From contig JACPNK010000002.1 of the NCBI GenBank assembly GCA_016185525.1, forward strand, positions 11,616 to 75,615: DNA of 64,000 bases, in the 5' to 3' direction. Position 1 is the first letter of the stretch. Every line of letters starts with the position of its first letter. The notes under the pieces were generated by a model that did no database searches, had not been told where the DNA came from, and saw only the letters and a program-made list of their open reading frames with translations. The translations under genes were made by a program, and so were the position numbers. Shown in pieces: positions 2,817 through 30,630 of this stretch. Source of the DNA: Candidatus Yanofskybacteria bacterium. Lineage in GTDB: Bacteria; Patescibacteriota; Minisyncoccia; 2-02-FULL-40-12; IGHO2-12-FULL-4.

Positions 2817-4286
2817 ATGCAAAAAGAAAAAACAAAAATTACGCCACAGCATTTCTATAAATTTTTCCAGTGTCCGCATTGGATTTGGTACGATCTCTAT
2901 GAAGACCAGCAGAAGAAGAAAGCTACACCGCCTTTGATGCAGATGATTTACGAAGACGGTCTAAAACACGAGCGGGAAGTTATCAAGTCAAAAAAATTTG
3001 AGGAAGTTGATACGGCTATGTTTAAGGATTTGGATGAAGCTTTTTTGGCTACGGCGGAACTGATGAAAAAAGGAAAAAATATTTATCACGGCGTTTTGAT
3101 GGACGAACACTGGGTGGGAATTCCCGATCTTTTGGAGGTTCGGCCGTTAAGCGAATTGGGCGATAAAAAATTAAAGTCTCATTTTGGCGATTATTATTAT
3201 GTGGTTTATGACATTAAAAACAGCAAAGACATCAAAGATGAACATAAATTCCAACTGGTTTTTTACAGTCTGATGTTGGAAAGGATTCAGGGAATTAGGC
3301 CGCGCGAAGCTTATATAATTAACAGCCAAGGCGAAGAAAAGTCTTTTGTTATTGACGAGTTTTTAGACTACTTCCACCTTACTCTGGGAAACATTGAGAA
3401 GATTTTAGAGGGCGAAAAACCGCCGCCATTTTTGAAGAGCGGTTGCAAGCGGACACCTTGGTATAGTCTTTGTTTGTCGGAGACAGAAAGTTGCCGCGAC
3501 GTTTCTCTGATTTATCGTTTAAGCCAGATGGACCAGCGCCAGCTCTATGATATCGGGATTAAAACCATAGATGATTTTGCCCATGCTGATTTGGAGGTTT
3601 TGCGTAGCCAGCTGATTAGCTGGAATTTTGATAAGTTGGTGCGTTTCCATAACCAAGCCCAGTCGTTGGTTAAAAATGAGTCCCTGATCTTAAAAAAGCC
3701 GGTTTTTCCGGAAGTGGAGACGGAAATATATTTTGATATTGAAAGCGACCCCACGCAGGACATTGACTATATGCTTGGCCTTTTAATTAAGCGGAAAAAT
3801 ATTAATGGCGAGCCGGAGTTCAAGTATTTCTTGGCAAATAATAAGTCTGAAGAAGAAAAAATTTGGCGGGAGTTTACCAAGTTTATTGAAGATTTGGATA
3901 ATTTTGTGATTTATCACTATGCCTTTTATGAAAAACAAACCTTTGACCGTCTAGCTTTGAGATATGGCGTTAGCGACAAAGCTTCAGAAAAATTTAAAAA
4001 TAATTCTATTGACTTGCATCGGGTGGTGGTTGACTCCGTCGTCCTGCCTTTGTATTTTTACAGCCTGAAAGATGTGGCCAGATATGTCGGTTTTCAGTGG
4101 CAAGCTGAAGATGCCGGCGGAGCGGAGTCGGTGGTTTGGTACAACCAGTGGAAAGAGACCGGCGATAAAAAGATTCTCCAGAAAATTTTGGATTACAACA
4201 AAGACGATGTTGTGGCGACCATGGTTGTCAAAGAGTGGTTGGAAAAGCAGAAACCTAAAATGCAAAGAGAAATATTGCCGGAATAG
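2817..4286 (+). CDS. RecB-family nuclease, TM0106-type (PD-(D/E)xK N-domain plus RNase-H-like C-domain)
   Basis: GIPDLLEV...YVVYDIKNSK fits a PD-(D/E)xK arrangement. A Cys cluster (CKRTPWYSLC...C) and a C-terminal IYFDIESDP...DYMLGL block resemble an RNase-H-like exonuclease fold. The 489-aa length matches the TM0106 family. Confidence 0.6.
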   Translation: MQKEKTKITPQHFYKFFQCPHWIWYDLYEDQQKKKATPPLMQMIYEDGLKHEREVIKSKKFEEVDTAMFKDLDEAFLATAELMKKGKNIYHGVLMDEHWVGIPDLLEVRPLSELGDKKLKSHFGDYYYVVYDIKNSKDIKDEHKFQLVFYSLMLERIQGIRPREAYIINSQGEEKSFVIDEFLDYFHLTLGNIEKILEGEKPPPFLKSGCKRTPWYSLCLSETESCRDVSLIYRLSQMDQRQLYDIGIKTIDDFAHADLEVLRSQLISWNFDKLVRFHNQAQSLVKNESLILKKPVFPEVETEIYFDIESDPTQDIDYMLGLLIKRKNINGEPEFKYFLANNKSEEEKIWREFTKFIEDLDNFVIYHYAFYEKQTFDRLALRYGVSDKASEKFKNNSIDLHRVVVDSVVLPLYFYSLKDVARYVGFQWQAEDAGGAESVVWYNQWKETGDKKILQKILDYNKDDVVATMVVKEWLEKQKPKMQREILPE

Positions 4287-4352
4287 AGCTAAACGTACCA
4301 AAGAAGCGGTGTTCGCCAAGTTTAGCTGTCCACCTAAATTTTAAAAACAAAT

Positions 4353-4376
4353 TTAAAAAACCCCGAAAGGGGTTCA
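4353..4376. terminator. bidirectional intrinsic terminator
   Basis: Hairpin ccccgaaagggg flanked by A-runs and T-runs between convergent genes. Confidence 0.6.
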
Positions 4377-4382
4377 GTATAA

Positions 4383-4673
4383 CTAGTCTCTGGTAGTGTG
4401 GCGTGGTTTTCTTGCTACGACAGCAGCTAGTTCCACATTAGCAGTCTTCAACTTTTTTTCAGTTTCATTAAGTTTTTCAAGAAGTTTTTGTATAAGTTGG
4501 GCTGCTTTTGACAAGACTCCGATTGTTTCTTGTGCATATTTCTGGAGTTCAGGCTTTGTGTTGTTTGTTATAGCCGACAGACTTTTTTGAGTAAGTGCCA
4601 TAACTTCTTGGAGTGCAACCATTAATTCTTTTTCAAATTCTAATTCTGCGTCTTTTGATGTTTGTAAAGACAT
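4383..4673 (-). CDS. small alpha-helical protein (96 aa), cassette 3 of 3
   Basis: Strong SD (aaggagg) and a predicted all-helical sequence. Palindrome site 1 lies about 95 nt upstream. Confidence 0.5.
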   Translation of the reverse strand: MSLQTSKDAELEFEKELMVALQEVMALTQKSLSAITNNTKPELQKYAQETIGVLSKAAQLIQKLLEKLNETEKKLKTANVELAAVVARKPRHTTRD

Positions 4674-4765
4674 TTTCTCCTCCTTTTTTTAAAGAGCTCC
4701 AAGATAAGGGAGCTACAAGCTAATATACATAATAGGCTGGTTGTGTCAACAGGTGGGTAACCGTC

Positions 4766-4792
4766 AGTCATCAAGGTTGAACCTTGATGACT
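4766..4792. promoter_or_regulatory. 27-bp perfect palindrome agtcatcaaggttgaaccttgatgact (putative operator)
   Basis: Perfect dyad read directly from the sequence. It is related to the dyads at 5237 and 5638. Confidence 0.5.
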
Positions 4793-4803
4793 AGGTCAAT
4801 TTA

Positions 4804-4825
4804 AAAAGCCCTTTTGGGGCTTTTG
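4804..4825 (-). terminator. intrinsic terminator of the 4827..5105 gene
   Basis: aaaagccc-tttt-gggctttt hairpin with a T-run on the - strand. It is near-identical to the terminator at 5276. Confidence 0.6.
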
Positions 4826-4826
4826 T

Positions 4827-5105
4827 TTAGACAAAGGACTGATCGTGTTCGGCCAAGTTTCGTTCAGCCAGAGCCAGCCTTTCTTTGAGTTCGACAGCTT
4901 CTTTTTCCAATTTTTCTTCCCGGTTCAGACTCGCGGACAGAAGCTGGTTATAAACGTCGCAAATTTCCACAAAAGACGAGACAAGTCTTAGAGTGTTAGG
5001 AGAGACAGATGTTTTTCTTTCCATTATTTCAAGAGCACCCTTTAAAAATGCGAGGTTTTTTCGGGCTTTTGCTAATTCCTCCAACGTCTTTTCTCTTTCC
5101 GTCAT
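4827..5105 (-). CDS. small coiled-coil protein, paralog A (about 93 aa)
   Basis: The C-terminus LNREEKLEKEAVELKERLALAERNL is about 70% identical to the 5301..5582 product. The start at 5105 was chosen by homology and because the same aggaaag SD precedes both paralogs. The track ORF extends to 5174. Confidence 0.55.
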   Translation of the reverse strand: MTEREKTLEELAKARKNLAFLKGALEIMERKTSVSPNTLRLVSSFVEICDVYNQLLSASLNREEKLEKEAVELKERLALAERNLAEHDQSFV

Positions 5106-5236
5106 TTTCTTTCCTAAAAAGATTGAGATTTCAAGAACTTGTCGTAGTTTACTATTTTTTATTTTTTGTGTCAAATTCTGAACCTGGACAATTCATTTGA
5201 CTTTATTCCATTTAATACAACCATCAAGGTCCAAAC

Positions 5237-5261
5237 ACCATCAAGGTTAAACCTTGATGGT
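5237..5261. promoter_or_regulatory. 25-bp perfect palindrome accatcaaggttaaaccttgatggt plus an extra half-site at 5221-5232
   Basis: Read directly from the sequence. It lies 60-130 nt upstream of the 4827..5105 gene. Confidence 0.5.
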
Positions 5262-5275
5262 CGTTGACAGATTTT

Positions 5276-5298
5276 AAAAGCCCTTTTAGGGCTTTTGT
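5276..5298 (-). terminator. intrinsic terminator of the 5301..5582 gene
   Basis: aaaagccc-tttta-gggctttt hairpin followed by a T-run. Confidence 0.6.
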
Positions 5299-5300
5299 TT

Positions 5301-5582
5301 TTAACTCCAACTTGGAGAACGACTCAAGTCTTGCTCAGCTTGGGCCAGCTTTTCTTTGAGTTCGGCTACTTCTTTCTCTAACTTTTCTTCCCGGTCGAGG
5401 CTTTCTGACCAGTATGTTGAAAGTAAATCATTTAAGTTTAAGAAAGCGTCGGTAATCGCAAGTATCTCTGGATGATTTCCTAACAAAGCTGGAATAGATA
5501 TTCTGGCATTGAGACTATGAATCTTAGATTTGCTTAATTCTTGTTTTGACTTTTCTCTCGGTGTAAGTTCTTTTTCTTTCAC
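5301..5582 (-). CDS. small coiled-coil protein, paralog B (93 aa, GTG start)
   Basis: LDREEKLEKEVAELKEKLAQAEQDL. An SD gaggaaag lies 5 nt before the GTG. Confidence 0.55.
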   Translation of the reverse strand: MKEKELTPREKSKQELSKSKIHSLNARISIPALLGNHPEILAITDAFLNLNDLLSTYWSESLDREEKLEKEVAELKEKLAQAEQDLSRSPSWS

Positions 5583-5637
5583 TATTCTTTCCTCTTTTCA
5601 ACCAACTAGAGTCATCTTATATTAATAAGTTTGTTTT

Positions 5638-5662
5638 GTCAAGGGGATAGAACACCCTTGAT
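5638..5662. promoter_or_regulatory. dyad gtcaaggggatagaacacccttgat in the divergent promoter region between the small-protein array and secD
   Basis: Shares the TCAAGG...CCTTGA arms with the palindromes at 4766 and 5237. Confidence 0.35.
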
Positions 5663-5691
5663 TTTTTAAAGATTGCTGTTACTGTTTCTTT

Positions 5692-7056
5692 ATGTCTCAA
5701 AGTTACGGGAAGAAATCTCTTATTATATTTCTTATTTCTCTTTTTCTCTTTTTTCTGGTCTATCCGGCCAGTTTTAATTTAAGCGCCGATTTTTTAAACT
5801 CAAAACTCAAGCTTGAAAAAGCCGGTTTCAGTATTCCCCACTTTTTCAATATCCCTTTTCGTCTCGGCTTGGATCTTCTGGGCGGTACCCATTTGGTTTA
5901 CAAGGCCGATGTTTCAAACTTGGTTGCCGGCCAAAGCTCCGCTGATGCAATGGAGGGAGTCAGAGATGTTATTGAAAGAAGGGTCAATATTTTTGGCGTG
6001 GCTGAACCGTTGGTTCAGGTTGAAGGAGAGGACAGACTGGTTGTAGAGTTGGCCGGAATCAAGGACATTTCAGAGGCAATTCGTTTGATAGGCGAGACTC
6101 CATTTTTGCAGTTTAAAGAAGAGCGTCCGGAGGCGGAGACGAACGCCATTTTAGAAGCTCAAAAAAAAGGCGATAAGCTGGATCAGGATCCTTACTTTAT
6201 TGATACTTCTTTAACCGGTAAATATCTTAACGGCGCCAGAGTTGTTTTTGGCGGAGGCGCAAGCCAGCTTTCGGGAGCGGAAGTTTCTTTGGAGCTGAAT
6301 GAAGAAGGCGGAAAGATTTTTAAAGAATTGACTGAAAAGAATTTAAATAAAAGATTGGCAATCTATTTGGACGGTGTGCCAATTAGCGCTCCGACCGTGC
6401 AATCTGTGATTCCTGACGGCAAAGCCGTTATCAGCGGCAATTTTAACATCAGTGAAGCCAAAGAACTAGTGACTCGTTTAAATGCCGGCGCTTTGCCGGT
6501 GCCGGTGTCTCTAATCTCACAGCAAAGCGTGGGCGCTTCTCTGGGCCGGGAATCTTTGGTCAAGAGCTTGAAAGCCGGAATTATAGGATTAATCTTGGTA
6601 GCTGTATTCATGGTTTTGTTTTACCGTTTGCCGGGTTTGGTTTCAGTCGCCGCCTTGCTGGTTTATGCGATTTTTGTTCTGACTTTCTACAAGTTGATAC
6701 CGGTTACTTTAACTTTGGCCGGTATTGCCGGTTTTATATTGTCTTTGGGTATGGCCGTTGACGCTAACGTTTTGATCTTTGCCCGAACGAGAGAGGAGTT
6801 AAGACAAGGAAAGTCTCTGAACTCTTCTTTCAGCGAGGGCTTTAGAAGGGCATGGCTTTCAATCAGGGATAGCCACGTAACTACGCTGATTGGCGCGATT
6901 ATTTTATATTTATTTACTACGTCTATAGTCAAGGGTTTTGCTTTGACTTTGGGTATTGGCGTGGCAATGAGTCTTTTTTCCGCAATCTTTGTGACGAAAT
7001 CTTTTTTGGCTCTTTTAATCGGTCCGTGGCTGGAAGGTAAAAAGTGGTTACTGTAA
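5692..7056 (+). CDS. secD: protein translocase subunit SecD
   Basis: Domain order and a C-terminal 6-TM block typical of SecD. It sits immediately upstream of secF. Confidence 0.85.
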   Translation: MSQSYGKKSLIIFLISLFLFFLVYPASFNLSADFLNSKLKLEKAGFSIPHFFNIPFRLGLDLLGGTHLVYKADVSNLVAGQSSADAMEGVRDVIERRVNIFGVAEPLVQVEGEDRLVVELAGIKDISEAIRLIGETPFLQFKEERPEAETNAILEAQKKGDKLDQDPYFIDTSLTGKYLNGARVVFGGGASQLSGAEVSLELNEEGGKIFKELTEKNLNKRLAIYLDGVPISAPTVQSVIPDGKAVISGNFNISEAKELVTRLNAGALPVPVSLISQQSVGASLGRESLVKSLKAGIIGLILVAVFMVLFYRLPGLVSVAALLVYAIFVLTFYKLIPVTLTLAGIAGFILSLGMAVDANVLIFARTREELRQGKSLNSSFSEGFRRAWLSIRDSHVTTLIGAIILYLFTTSIVKGFALTLGIGVAMSLFSAIFVTKSFLALLIGPWLEGKKWLL

Positions 7057-7062
7057 TTTTTT

Positions 7063-7947
7063 ATGAAACCTATTTATAAAATAATGTTTTTTGTTTCTAT
7101 ATCGCTGGTCGTTTTGGCTGTGGCGGCGACGGTGATTTTCGGTTTAAACTTTAGCGCCGATTTTAAAGGCGGGACTTTAATGGAAGTCCAATTTATCGGA
7201 CCCGAGGCGCCTGGCATTTCGGAGCTCCAGGACTTTGTGAAAAAAAGCCCCGAAACCAGTGACGCGGTGATAAGTCCTTCCGGCGCAGACTCTTTCATTT
7301 TTAGGCTGAAAGAAATTGACGAGGAAGTTCACCAAAAAATTGTAGAAAATCTCAAATTAAAATTCACAAACTTGGAGGAAAAAAGATTTGACTCTGTCGG
7401 CGCGGTGGTGGGCAAGGAACTTAAAAGCAGAAGCATTACGGCGATTGTTTTGGTTTTGATTTTTATCGTTCTTTATATTGCTTTTGTTTTCAGAAAACTT
7501 TACAGCACCCTTTCTTCTTTTACTATGGGCGTGGCTGCAATTGTTGCTCTTCTGCACGATGTATTAATTCCTATGGGGGTGTTCGCTTTGCTGGGTAAGT
7601 ACTATGGTGTTGAGATCACGGCCGTGTTTGTTGCTGCCGTTTTAACCATATTAGGCTATTCGGTTTCCGATACGGTGGTAGTTTTTGACAGAATCAGGGA
7701 GAATGTCATGCGTTTTGGAGGCAAGAGTAATTTTGGCCAGCTTGTTCACGATAGTATTTTGCAGACCCTGACTCGCTCTTTAAATACCACCGTTACGACG
7801 CTTTTGTCGCTTGTGGCCATTTATTTTTTTGGCGGCGAATCAATTAAATATTTTTCCCTGGCTTTGATAATAGGCATATTTTTAGGAGCATATTCTTCAA
7901 TTTTTGTTGCTTCGCCGATAGTGGTTTGGTGGTCAAAAAAAAGCTGA
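7063..7947 (+). CDS. secF: protein translocase subunit SecF
   Basis: 6-TM SecF-like sequence adjacent to secD. Confidence 0.85.
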   Translation: MKPIYKIMFFVSISLVVLAVAATVIFGLNFSADFKGGTLMEVQFIGPEAPGISELQDFVKKSPETSDAVISPSGADSFIFRLKEIDEEVHQKIVENLKLKFTNLEEKRFDSVGAVVGKELKSRSITAIVLVLIFIVLYIAFVFRKLYSTLSSFTMGVAAIVALLHDVLIPMGVFALLGKYYGVEITAVFVAAVLTILGYSVSDTVVVFDRIRENVMRFGGKSNFGQLVHDSILQTLTRSLNTTVTTLLSLVAIYFFGGESIKYFSLALIIGIFLGAYSSIFVASPIVVWWSKKS

Positions 7948-25529: not shown

Positions 25530-26129
25530 ATGAGGGTGATCTCGTTTATCAGCGGCACAATTGAGGCTGTTTCTGACCGATCGGTTATAGTAAACACCGG
25601 CGGACTGGGCTATAGGGTCATATTGCCAGAAAGAGTTCATGGTATTTTATCAAAAGTAGGCTCACAAGTCAAGCTTTTTGTGTACACTAATTTTAACTCG
25701 CGAGAAGGGATTTTTGATTTCTACGGCTTTGAAAAGCCGGAGGAATTGGCTTTTTTTCAATTGCTCTTGACTGTTTCCGGCGTCGGGCCGAAGTCGGCGC
25801 AGGGGTTGCTTTCCTCGGTTGACTTGCAGACTTTGCAGTTGGCTATTATCAAGGGCGATGACAATTACTTGAGAAAGTTGTCGGGTGTCGGCTCTAAAAC
25901 CAGTCAGCGCATAATTTTGGAATTGAAAAATAAATTATTAGAAAAAGGTCTTGGCGTGGGCCAAGACCGTGATTTTGCTTCTGAAGGCGAGGCAATAGAC
26001 GCTTTAGTTGCTCTTGGGTACTCCGCTTATCAGGGCAGAGAAGCGCTAAAAGAGGTCTCGGCAGATGCCAAGACCTCGGAAGATAAAATCAAAGAAGCAT
26101 TAAAAATTTTAGGCAAGAGTAAAAAGTAA
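25530..26129 (+). CDS. ruvA: Holliday junction branch migration complex subunit RuvA
   Basis: OB-fold N-terminus, tandem HhH (LLTVSGVGPKSAQ / LSGVGSKTSQRI) and a C-terminal RuvB-binding domain. Confidence 0.8.
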   Translation: MRVISFISGTIEAVSDRSVIVNTGGLGYRVILPERVHGILSKVGSQVKLFVYTNFNSREGIFDFYGFEKPEELAFFQLLLTVSGVGPKSAQGLLSSVDLQTLQLAIIKGDDNYLRKLSGVGSKTSQRIILELKNKLLEKGLGVGQDRDFASEGEAIDALVALGYSAYQGREALKEVSADAKTSEDKIKEALKILGKSKK

Positions 26130-27067
26130 TGAGCTTTTTGCAATCAAAAGACTGGTTGGAATTTCAAAAATTTTTAGGGAGGTCTGTTTTTGAATATGAC
26201 AAAGAGGGAATTAAAGCGGGAATCATAAAATTGCCCGAGCCTTTTAAGAAAAGCTATCTTTATATTGCTCACGGTCCGGAGATGGATTTTAATTCAATGG
26301 CGGGGGGGTTAAAAAATCCGGTTAGTAATTTTACAGCTTGGCTTAAAGATTTGGCTGAAAAAGAAAAATCAATTTTTATTAAGGCCGAACCTCTGGCCGA
26401 CAATATCGCCCAAGTTCTTGCTGAACATAAATTCAAAAAATCTAAAAAAGAAATACAGCCACCCAAAACAGTTATTTTGGATTTGTCCAAAAGCGAAGAC
26501 GACCTGCTTAACGCGATGCATCACAAAACCAGATATAACGTTAAAGTTGCGGAAAAAAACGGGATTGTTGTCAAAGAAAGCGATGACCTTGAGTCATTCT
26601 GGAAGTTGATAAAAAAAACTTCAAAAAGAGACAAATTTTCTTCTCACTCCAAGGACTATTACGAAAAACTTCTTAAATTTTTTAACGACGGCAAGGAGAT
26701 CACATCAGGGTTGAACCTCGCTTATTATAAAGATCAGCCAGTTGCCGGACTTATTTTAATGACTCACAAAGATACTGCTTACTATTTGCACGGGGCTTCG
26801 GACTATGATTACCGTCAGTACATGGCTCCATACAAACTACACTGGGAAGTGATTAAAAAGTTACAATGGGCATCTTTGCAGAAGTCTGCAAAGATGCCCA
26901 TTGTAGGATACGATCTTTGGGGGATTGATTCCAAGAAATGGCCGGGGGTAACTCGTTTCAAATTTGGCTGGGGCGGCAAAGTTGTTGAATATCCCGGCTC
27001 TTTTGACTTGCCGATTTCTAAATTTTGGTTTTTGGCTTATAAAGTAGCGAGAAGATTAGAACCTTGA
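26129..27067 (+). CDS. FemAB-family peptidoglycan aminoacyltransferase-like protein
   Basis: The block KLHWEVIKKLQWASLQKSAKMPIVGYDLWGI resembles a FemAB/GNAT-fold C-domain. Confidence 0.45.
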   Translation: MSFLQSKDWLEFQKFLGRSVFEYDKEGIKAGIIKLPEPFKKSYLYIAHGPEMDFNSMAGGLKNPVSNFTAWLKDLAEKEKSIFIKAEPLADNIAQVLAEHKFKKSKKEIQPPKTVILDLSKSEDDLLNAMHHKTRYNVKVAEKNGIVVKESDDLESFWKLIKKTSKRDKFSSHSKDYYEKLLKFFNDGKEITSGLNLAYYKDQPVAGLILMTHKDTAYYLHGASDYDYRQYMAPYKLHWEVIKKLQWASLQKSAKMPIVGYDLWGIDSKKWPGVTRFKFGWGGKVVEYPGSFDLPISKFWFLAYKVARRLEP

Positions 27068-27132: not shown

Positions 27133-27438
27133 ATGTTACAAGATCTTCAGCAAAGAGTTACTGAACTAGAAAAACATCTTGAAGGAATGACGTCAAATTG
27201 GAATCTTTCAATGTCGAGCCATACTGTTACCCAAGGTAGGTTGCGAGCAAAGGAAGAGCAGTTTGAACTTCTTTCTAAAGAGCTGGAGAGAGTTAACTAT
27301 CATGCGGCAGAGTTAAGAGGCCAACTGAATTTAGCAAACAAAAGAGAAGAAGATTTAAAACAAGAAATCAGGGAACTTAAGAATAGATATGACGAGCTGG
27401 TTGATAAATTGTTGGACAGGGTGAATGTTGCCGGGTAA
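27133..27438 (+). CDS. small coiled-coil protein (101 aa), distantly similar to the 4827/5301 paralogs
   Basis: LANKREEDLKQEIRELKNRYDEL versus LNREEKLEKEAVELKERL. A strong terminator follows. Confidence 0.45.
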   Translation: MLQDLQQRVTELEKHLEGMTSNWNLSMSSHTVTQGRLRAKEEQFELLSKELERVNYHAAELRGQLNLANKREEDLKQEIRELKNRYDELVDKLLDRVNVAG

Positions 27439-30333: not shown

Positions 30334-30630
30334 ATGAAAAACCCCTTAACTCTCAAAGTGGAGTCATCGCTGGGCATAGTTCTTTTAGCTTGCCTCGCGT
30401 TGTTTTTTATCTCCTTCTTTTTTATTGTCATGAAAAATTTTAACTTGGATGTGGATGCGGAGATTTTACAGGCTAGCAACATAAAAAGAATTAAAGTAGT
30501 TTCCGGGCCGGAGAGGGAACTCATAGACGGTTGGTTGAAAGGTAACACCTCGGTGATTATTTTACCTGAAAGTGAAAGTAAATACCGGTATATTTTGCAC
30601 AAATATCCCGATAAACCTTGGGCTAAATGA
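30334..30630 (+). CDS. hypothetical small membrane protein
   Basis: One TM helix. It overlaps the next gene by 4 nt, which suggests translational coupling. Confidence 0.35.
   Translation: MKNPLTLKVESSLGIVLLACLALFFISFFFIVMKNFNLDVDAEILQASNIKRIKVVSGPERELIDGWLKGNTSVIILPESESKYRYILHKYPDKPWAK

Follow-up and report, generated by a model that had tools for sequence, protein, structure and literature searches.

Two perfect palindromes that lie among three small genes (g1, g2 and g3) in a metagenome-assembled genome (MAG) of Candidatus Yanofskybacteria are most likely copies of a dispersed palindromic repeat of Patescibacteria. Palindromes 1 and 2 are probably repetitive extragenic palindrome (REP)-like elements of a system that pairs a hairpin with a Y1 transposase, located here beside a lineage-restricted family of small genes, rather than operators. 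The analysed stretch of DNA, referred to as the window, is 64 kb in length. An earlier sequence-only reading had described the locus as three modular cassettes, each with an operator dyad, a gene and a terminator, placed under the control of a single dyad-binding regulator. The present reading is carried by direct observations of what the repeat is and how it is distributed, of its link to a Y1 transposase gene and of its absence from orthologous loci.

In the window, the dyad TCAAGG-N(1-12)-CCTTGA occurs three times, always in the g1-g3 region, compared with 0.09 expected occurrences, and RAGGTNNNACCTY is also rare (3 matches, 0.3 expected). A 19-mer, ATCAAGGTTNAACCTTGAT, is present at palindromes 1 and 2 only. 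One genome per bacterial and archaeal species was scanned for exact matches to the 19-mer, with taxonomy taken from the record titles. At least 117 stretches were recovered, compared with approximately 9 expected by chance according to our own estimate from 596 gigabases and 18 specified bases. Among the matches listed, approximately 100 are in Patescibacteria by record title; the named hosts are Yanofsky-, Taylor-, Nomura-, Vogel-, Adler-, Kaiser-, Campbell-, Jorgensen-, Zambryski-, Yonath- and Moraniibacteria, alongside many unclassified MAGs, and one Taylorbacteria assembly contains 10 exact copies. Twelve of the 15 non-Patescibacteria matches listed lie inside open reading frames (ORFs), as expected by chance. 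Two degenerate matches elsewhere in the window are probably also due to chance: ATCAGGGTTGAACCTCGCT at 26704-26722, which differs from the 19-mer by 3 mismatches and lies inside the ORF at 26129-27067, and a core-only match, AAGGTAACACCTC, at 30539-30551.

Most copies of the repeat are extragenic. By crude ORF calls, 58 sites are intergenic, divided between tandem (32), convergent (14) and divergent (12) gaps, and a further 20 overlap the ends of ORFs. The ratio of about 2:1:1 indicates no preference for promoter-bearing gaps, and 25 of the 32 tandem-gap sites are closer to the upstream stop codon than to the downstream start. The genes next to the sites encode GAPDH, EF-G, ClpB, IleRS, a helicase and a glycosyltransferase, which do not form a functionally coherent set. 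Complementarity continues past the 19-mer by at least 3 nt in 45 sites (2.4 expected), with a maximum of 22 nt, and these lower-stem extensions vary between copies of one genome yet stay complementary. Across 62 variant copies, the apex AAGGT/ACCTT is invariant and the outer pairs covary; 138 cells are changed on both sides, compared with 72.5 in shuffles, and none of the 500 shuffles reached the observed score. Some copies sit at the centre of longer perfect palindromes (L062:3525-3587, up to 63 nt; L004:1920-1972; L021:3275-3320), which reflects either a capacity for much longer hairpins or the formation of local inverted duplications at the element.

Clustering of the proteins encoded up to 2.5 kb from a site showed that the commonest neighbour, the only one that recurs strongly, is a protein of approximately 225 aa that matches the Pfam family Y1_Tnp (IS200-like) with 24.8 bits against a cut-off of 23. 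It carries the HUH motif NHFH and an invariant tyrosine. The family comprises 6406 clusters at an E-value of 1e-10 or below; 119 of the 120 clusters listed have a precomputed PF01797 match, and their sources label them "transposase" in Patescibacteria. The palindrome is present on both sides of the Y1 gene at five loci (L006, L030, L032, L105 and L119). At L030 the bracketing is tight, with hairpins at 2909 and 3614 around a Y1 gene at 2916-3602. As an independent test, five Y1 homologs, one of them from Yanofskybacteria, were picked by protein similarity alone. All five are bordered on each side by an AAGGT/GAGGT-NNN-ACCTT/ACCTC hairpin whose lower stem is particular to the genome, and their loci, about 21 kb in all, contain 20 matches to RAGGTNNNACCTY.

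Metagenome Y1 loci gave the same picture. Where both flanks were covered, the 5' and 3' flanks have an identical word of 12 nt or longer in common in 49 of 58 loci, compared with 2 of 44 distant controls. The words in common are palindromes built along the same general lines, and at least 32 of them are inverted repeats. The strict AAGGT-NNN-ACCTY hairpin was found in about 9 of 74 cases (about one in eight) in a set of 80 metagenome Y1 loci, so the exact core belongs to a single sub-lineage; with any shared word allowed, matching palindromes on the two flanks were the general rule. A more distant Y1 homolog (37% identity, L115:2320-3015) has a different flanking palindrome, gaattgaagggtttcgtaaacccttcatg, and thus exemplifies how hairpin and enzyme vary together; a single exact copy of the ATCAAGGTT type is also present in this 8-kb locus.

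The hairpin is also built into the Y1 gene itself. Many Y1 genes contain a third, in-frame hairpin with its centre about 165-185 nt into the gene, at codons about 55-61; it encodes (Q/R)G(S/R)TL and has the same lower stem as the flank copies of that genome. The 3' hairpin overlaps the end of the gene, where AAG GTT AAA CCT TGA provides the C-terminal residues KVKP and the stop codon; the repeat is thus partly constrained by its coding role. The 5' hairpin overlaps a -35-like box, TTGAYA or TTGCGT, with TATAAT about 17 nt downstream; because of this overlap, the Y1 enzyme could regulate its own expression by binding its own hairpin.

The small-gene locus was compared with the same locus in relatives, and the palindromes are missing from both orthologous loci examined. 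In the closer one (L002), which is 94% identical across secD-g3, there is a single small gene, the g3 ortholog. Homology ends at window position 5271 and restarts at 4286, and the window has 985 extra bases that start at palindrome 2. The more distant relative (L001) has a g2-like and a g3-like gene with an rve-type insertion sequence (IS) between them. Its g2 block, including the conserved promoter, is 82.6% identical to the window, and homology stops at 4803, beside palindrome 1. The assembly that contains L001 does carry the exact 19-mer at other places (L099 and L114). The absence of the palindromes from both loci indicates that they are variable insertions or rearrangement points and not conserved parts of promoters. 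The rve-family IS lies between the paralogs at L001:4827-5900, and the terminator of the first paralog is followed by 45 nt duplicated from the 3' end of the RecB-like nuclease gene, which shows that a gene and its flank were duplicated at this spot. The L002 record, a metagenome contig from ENA, starts with an Illumina adapter, cctacacgacgctcttccgatct, at positions 1-23; this contig end is an untrimmed artefact.

Table 1. Features of the small-gene locus in the window and of hairpins that overlap Y1 genes in other genomes (positions in the window unless preceded by a locus number)
Feature	Position	Strand	Details
TM0106-type RecB-like nuclease gene	2817-4286		489 aa; 343 bits
g1 terminator, intrinsic	4358-4375	-	gaacccc-tttc-ggggttt, then T run
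g1	4383-4673	-	96 aa, helical ORFan, strong Shine-Dalgarno aaggagg
g1 promoter-like site	4722-4749	-	TTGACA, 16 nt, TATATT (11/12 matches)
Palindrome 1, REP-like	4766-4792		agtcATCAAGGTTgAACCTTGATgact, perfect 27-mer
g2 terminator, intrinsic	4804-4824	-	aaaagcccc-aaaa-gggctttt
g2	4827-5105	-	92 aa, g3 paralog
g2 promoter-like site	5146-5174	-	TTGACA, 17 nt, TAAACT
Extra left arm	5220-5230		ACCATCAAGGT, 17 nt from identical word within palindrome 2
Palindrome 2, REP-like	5237-5261		accATCAAGGTTaAACCTTGATggt, perfect 25-mer
g3 terminator, intrinsic	5276-5296	-	aaaagccct-aaa-agggctttt
g3	5301-5582	-	93 aa, GTG start
g3 promoter-like site	5614-5642	-	TTGACA, 17 nt, TAAGAT
Third "dyad"	5639-5661		TCAAGGG, 9 nt, CCCTTGA
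Internal Y1 hairpins	L127:1651-1689, L129:1657-1695, L130:1645-1683, L105:2880-2918, L119:691-729, L071:7121-7139
3' hairpins overlapping Y1 gene end	L006:6072-6110, L032:4950-4988, L030:2909-2927
5' hairpins overlapping -35-like box	L042:7801-7882, L127:1437-1500, L105:2664-2716, L123:2951-3000

The features of the locus are collected in Table 1. The three minus-strand ORFs and the two perfect palindromes, one of them with an additional half-site, had been recognised in the sequence-only reading and are present as described. The locus consists of three independently transcribed small genes; each is monocistronic and has a Shine-Dalgarno sequence, its own sigma-70-like promoter match and an intrinsic terminator, a GC-rich hairpin with a T run. 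The array is not an assembly artefact because the g1-g3 region is identical in three independent assemblies from other sequencing runs. On one side it is flanked by a TM0106-type RecB-like nuclease gene and on the other by secD/secF (5692-7947). The nuclease combines a Cas4-like domain with an RNase_H_2 domain, and its gene is syntenic with the small-gene array in every relative seen.

A near-identical terminator had been proposed to follow each gene. This holds for g2 and g3, whose terminators are 93% identical over 30 nt, but not for g1, whose terminator differs and is only 67% identical to the reference copy. The g2 and g3 units can be aligned only in their 3' 180 nt, which contain the C-terminal coding sequence, terminator and palindrome; within this block identity reaches 93-95% for the terminator and palindrome and 78% for the coding part, and the 5' parts do not align. 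This restriction of the alignment to the 3' ends indicates that the palindrome travels with the 3' end of the upstream gene. Two paralogs that are each followed by a terminator plus palindrome are a better description of the sequence than a dyad in front of each gene. The promoter-gene-terminator units of the proposed cassettes are real and two of them stem from an old duplication, but g1 is unrelated and the operator part is unsupported.

The third "dyad", upstream of g3, is not equivalent to the other two. It has a different spacing, it lacks the AAGGT-NNN-ACCTT core and its right arm is the -35 TTGACA of g3 plus 3 nt; in the closest relative one arm is mutated. It also folds weakly (-5.6 kcal/mol), and 7 of 200 shuffles fold equally well. 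The third "dyad" is the g3 -35 box together with a weak arm. When folded as single-stranded DNA with their terminators, the palindrome segments reach about -20 kcal/mol each (z -6.2 to -7.6); the 76-nt segment containing palindrome 1 and the g2 terminator gave -20.1 kcal/mol and z -7.6. Duplicated arms like the one at 5220-5230 recur at other copies of the element. A scan of positions 4200-5800 against Rfam at a permissive E-value returned only noise and no family.

The g2 and g3 proteins are paralogs (38% identity, E 8e-15), as the sequence-only reading had noticed. They represent an old duplication within a very small, lineage-restricted family of two-helix-hairpin proteins: 3 matches were found in 5.8 billion proteins, and a deep profile search produced 8 representatives in 1.8 billion clusters, none annotated. 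Family members have in common TPREK near the N terminus and the motif SESL(D/G)REEKLEKE, which in g3 is present as SESLDREEKLEKEVAELKEKLA. AlphaFold models g3 with confidence as a generic hairpin of two helices (residues 8-34 and 38-87), with a predicted local distance difference test score of 90; comparison with the PDB using Foldseek gave nothing at an E-value of 0.001 or below, and the matches returned were uninformative. The g1 protein is not a relative of g2/g3 (BLASTP E 1.5-11, hhalign probability 0.3%), and its only match in the 5.8 billion proteins is itself, the hypothetical protein HYX21_00335 of Candidatus Yanofskybacteria. The gene at 27133-27438, put forward earlier as a distant relative, has no detectable kinship with g2/g3; only a coiled-coil stretch of 19 residues aligns, with a probability of 13.8%.

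None of the three proteins had a match above cut-off in Pfam, NCBIfam, PADLOC or PHROGs, and the suggestion that they resemble phasins, antitoxins or regulators found no backing in these curated models. The g2 protein is under purifying selection relative to its ortholog in a relative (P0003), with a ratio of nonsynonymous to synonymous substitution rates of 0.26. Between g3 and its close ortholog (L002:401-682) there are 8 nucleotide differences, 7 nonsynonymous and 1 synonymous, which hints at relaxed or diversifying selection, although the count is too small for a test. As a guess, based on the consensus promoters and separate terminators, the small proteins may be abundant, separately expressed and structural or adaptor-like.

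The proposed element is a DNA hairpin whose apex, AAGGT-YNR-ACCTT, is conserved and whose lower stem changes in a complementary manner. Its copies are scattered in the extragenic DNA of Patescibacteria, and in related genomes it stands at both ends of the Y1 gene and often within it. By analogy with IS200/IS605 elements and with REPs and their REP-associated tyrosine transposases (RAYTs), the Y1 enzyme would recognise the hairpin on single-stranded DNA and would cut and rejoin the DNA beside it, spreading or rearranging copies. The copies in the window lie just past the terminators of g3 and g2, at the points where gene order departs from that of the relatives. We infer that a Y1 enzyme of this genome would act on palindromes 1 and 2, and that the two palindromes influence the regulation of g1 and g2 little, if at all.

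It is highly improbable that the palindromes are operators through which a dimeric transcription factor jointly controls the three small genes, perhaps as part of a wider regulon. The idea is prompted by the palindromes being perfect, upstream of the g1 and g2 promoters and, within the window, unique to this spot; in addition, the 5' copy at Y1 loci overlaps a -35-like TTGAYA, so the sequence can occur in promoters. The geometry, however, speaks against operators. The distance from the palindrome to the next -35 box is not fixed, at 16 nt for g1 and 46-63 nt for g2, whereas the distance from the terminator is constant at 11-14 nt (11 nt between the g2 terminator and palindrome 1, 14 nt between the g3 terminator and palindrome 2). 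Genome-wide, sites occur in convergent gaps, those in tandem gaps sit closer to the upstream stop, and the adjoining genes are housekeeping genes with no relation to one another. L001 retains the g2 promoter but has no palindrome there, the "dyad" of g3 is a different sequence over a -35 box, and the lower stem changes within one genome but keeps its complementarity. A small regulon controlled through the dyads is thus unsupported, given the dispersed nature of the repeat, its lack of promoter association, its absence from the orthologous promoter in L001 and its position on both sides of Y1 genes in related genomes. The occurrence of palindromes across genomes without promoter association is essentially the outcome which the sequence-only reading itself had named as speaking against it.

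A role at the RNA level is very unlikely to be the reason why the palindromes were retained, whether as back-up terminators or as stabilising 3' hairpins of the g3 and g2 transcripts. The high stability of the hairpins, their 3'-proximal position across genomes and their covarying stems would all suit such a role, and some REPs of E. coli have a demonstrated role at the RNA level, which is compatible with a REP origin. The palindromes nonetheless lack a T run and come after a canonical terminator that has one; the apex is constant across distant lineages, pointing to recognition by a protein, and an RNA role has no Rfam match behind it and leaves the association with Y1 genes unexplained. A secondary effect of this kind is possible. 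It is also unlikely, if less so, that the Y1 gene and its hairpins form an ordinary active IS200-like insertion sequence, of which the copies in the window would be solo ends or miniature derivatives. Consistent with an active IS, the protein matches Pfam Y1_Tnp and not the RAYT equivalog, hairpins bracket the gene tightly at L030 and the family is very large. However, the same palindrome is found on both flanks, unlike the distinct ends of IS200/IS605 elements, and solo hairpins far exceed Y1 genes in the sampled loci, with about 108 hairpin sites compared with 9 Y1 genes in 117 motif-selected loci. One Yanofskybacteria member has kept the same gene neighbourhood in all 4 of the places listed (of 15), each from a different metagenome sample, and this constancy leans towards a domesticated, RAYT-like pair over an active IS.

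Several observations weigh against REP-like elements as the explanation of palindromes 1 and 2. The covariation of the stem would be produced equally by a dimeric DNA-binding protein co-evolving with its site; a hairpin is favoured over a dimer site because the lower stem varies within a genome and because the enzyme family acts on single strands. The Y1 protein scored 32.7 bits against the NCBIfam RAYT equivalog model NF047646 and did not reach the cut-off of 80. No Y1_Tnp gene was found in the 64-kb window by tblastn, so the link between palindromes 1 and 2 and the enzyme rests on homology to other genomes. Beside the window copies neither a GTAG nor a CGTC tag is conserved, and the flanks of 123 sites revealed nothing more than a Y...R preference at -1/+1 and A/T-rich complementary extensions. 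Copy number, which refers to exact and not degenerate copies, is low for a classical REP, with 2 in the 64 kb of the window and 10 in one other assembly; classical REPs are present in more than 100 copies per genome. The context statistics were derived from crude ORF calls, in which the longest ORFs of at least 60 aa were picked greedily. Finally, both copies in the window are upstream of promoters, and a side effect on g1 or g2 expression is possible.

Other classes of repeat were set aside without a formal test: integron attC sites, clustered regularly interspaced short palindromic repeats (CRISPR), miniature inverted-repeat transposable elements (MITEs) with terminal inverted repeats, DNA-uptake sequences and parS-like sites. 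The grounds were that no integrase or cas genes are nearby, low copy number, no target duplications or a different consensus.

REP/REPIN plus RAYT systems have been described in gamma-proteobacteria (Nunvar 2010, PMC2817692; Bertels & Rainey 2011, PMC3116915; Bertels 2017, PMC5581495), and the same palindrome on both sides of a Y1 gene is the arrangement that defines them (PMC2817692, PMC3116915, PMC5581495). Palindromes 1 and 2 and their relatives resemble these systems as short (about 20-40 nt), dispersed, extragenic hairpin palindromes without dependence on gene orientation, which stand, in related genomes, on both sides of a Y1 HUH gene. Further likenesses are a hairpin sequence that co-varies with the enzyme lineage, arms that occur as duplicates or doublets, and copies near the 3' ends of genes. 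They differ in their low copy number, the lack of a GTAG/CGTC tag, a protein below the RAYT equivalog cut-off, the patescibacterial host and a 19-nt core that is identical across many candidate phyla, as well as in the third, in-frame copy often present in the Y1 gene and the 3' copy that overlaps its stop codon. For RAYT groups 1 and 4, 12-14 occurrences are reported, and for groups 2 and 3 the figure is 57-140 (Bertels 2017, PMC5581495).

With IS200/IS605 elements the system shares the Pfam Y1_Tnp domain, the HUH motif with a conserved tyrosine, hairpins beside the gene ends and, putatively, a single-stranded DNA mechanism. Unlike these elements, it has a Y1 protein of approximately 225 aa instead of approximately 150 aa, the same palindrome on both flanks, many solo hairpins without a gene and, for one member, a genomic context that is stable across samples. 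The operators of CIRCE/HrcA and HAIR/HspR are likewise perfect inverted repeats of similar length, intergenic and sometimes positioned over a -35 box; in contrast to these operators, the palindromes have no fixed promoter geometry or coherent regulon, occur in convergent gaps, have a variable complementary lower stem and are missing from orthologous promoters.

REP/RAYT-type systems are known mainly from Proteobacteria, and no description of one in the candidate phyla radiation was found in the searchable literature. It is conceivable, although rather doubtful, that the widespread Y1/hairpin system of Patescibacteria has become a domesticated partnership, inherited vertically and serving the host in some function, and is not a plain selfish element. 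Such a partnership would fit a core that is nearly unchanged across many candidate phyla, solo copies that lie after terminators and at changes in gene order, and a hairpin that appears to be built into the Y1 gene three times (at the -35 box, in frame at codons 55-61 and at the stop codon). The host function might be 3'-end formation, genome structuring or local variation in gene content.

For this locus, the analysis removes a false lead: there is no evidence of a dyad-controlled regulon, and g1-g3 are ordinary monocistronic units. Gene content at this one spot varies among close relatives, which have 1, 2 or 3 small genes, and the repeats lie at the break points. If the proposed relationship is true, the conserved hairpin/Y1 pair of Patescibacteria would be of use for marking intergenic mobile DNA in reduced genomes, and the hairpin embedded in the coding sequence of its enzyme would offer a tractable case for how such pairs persist.

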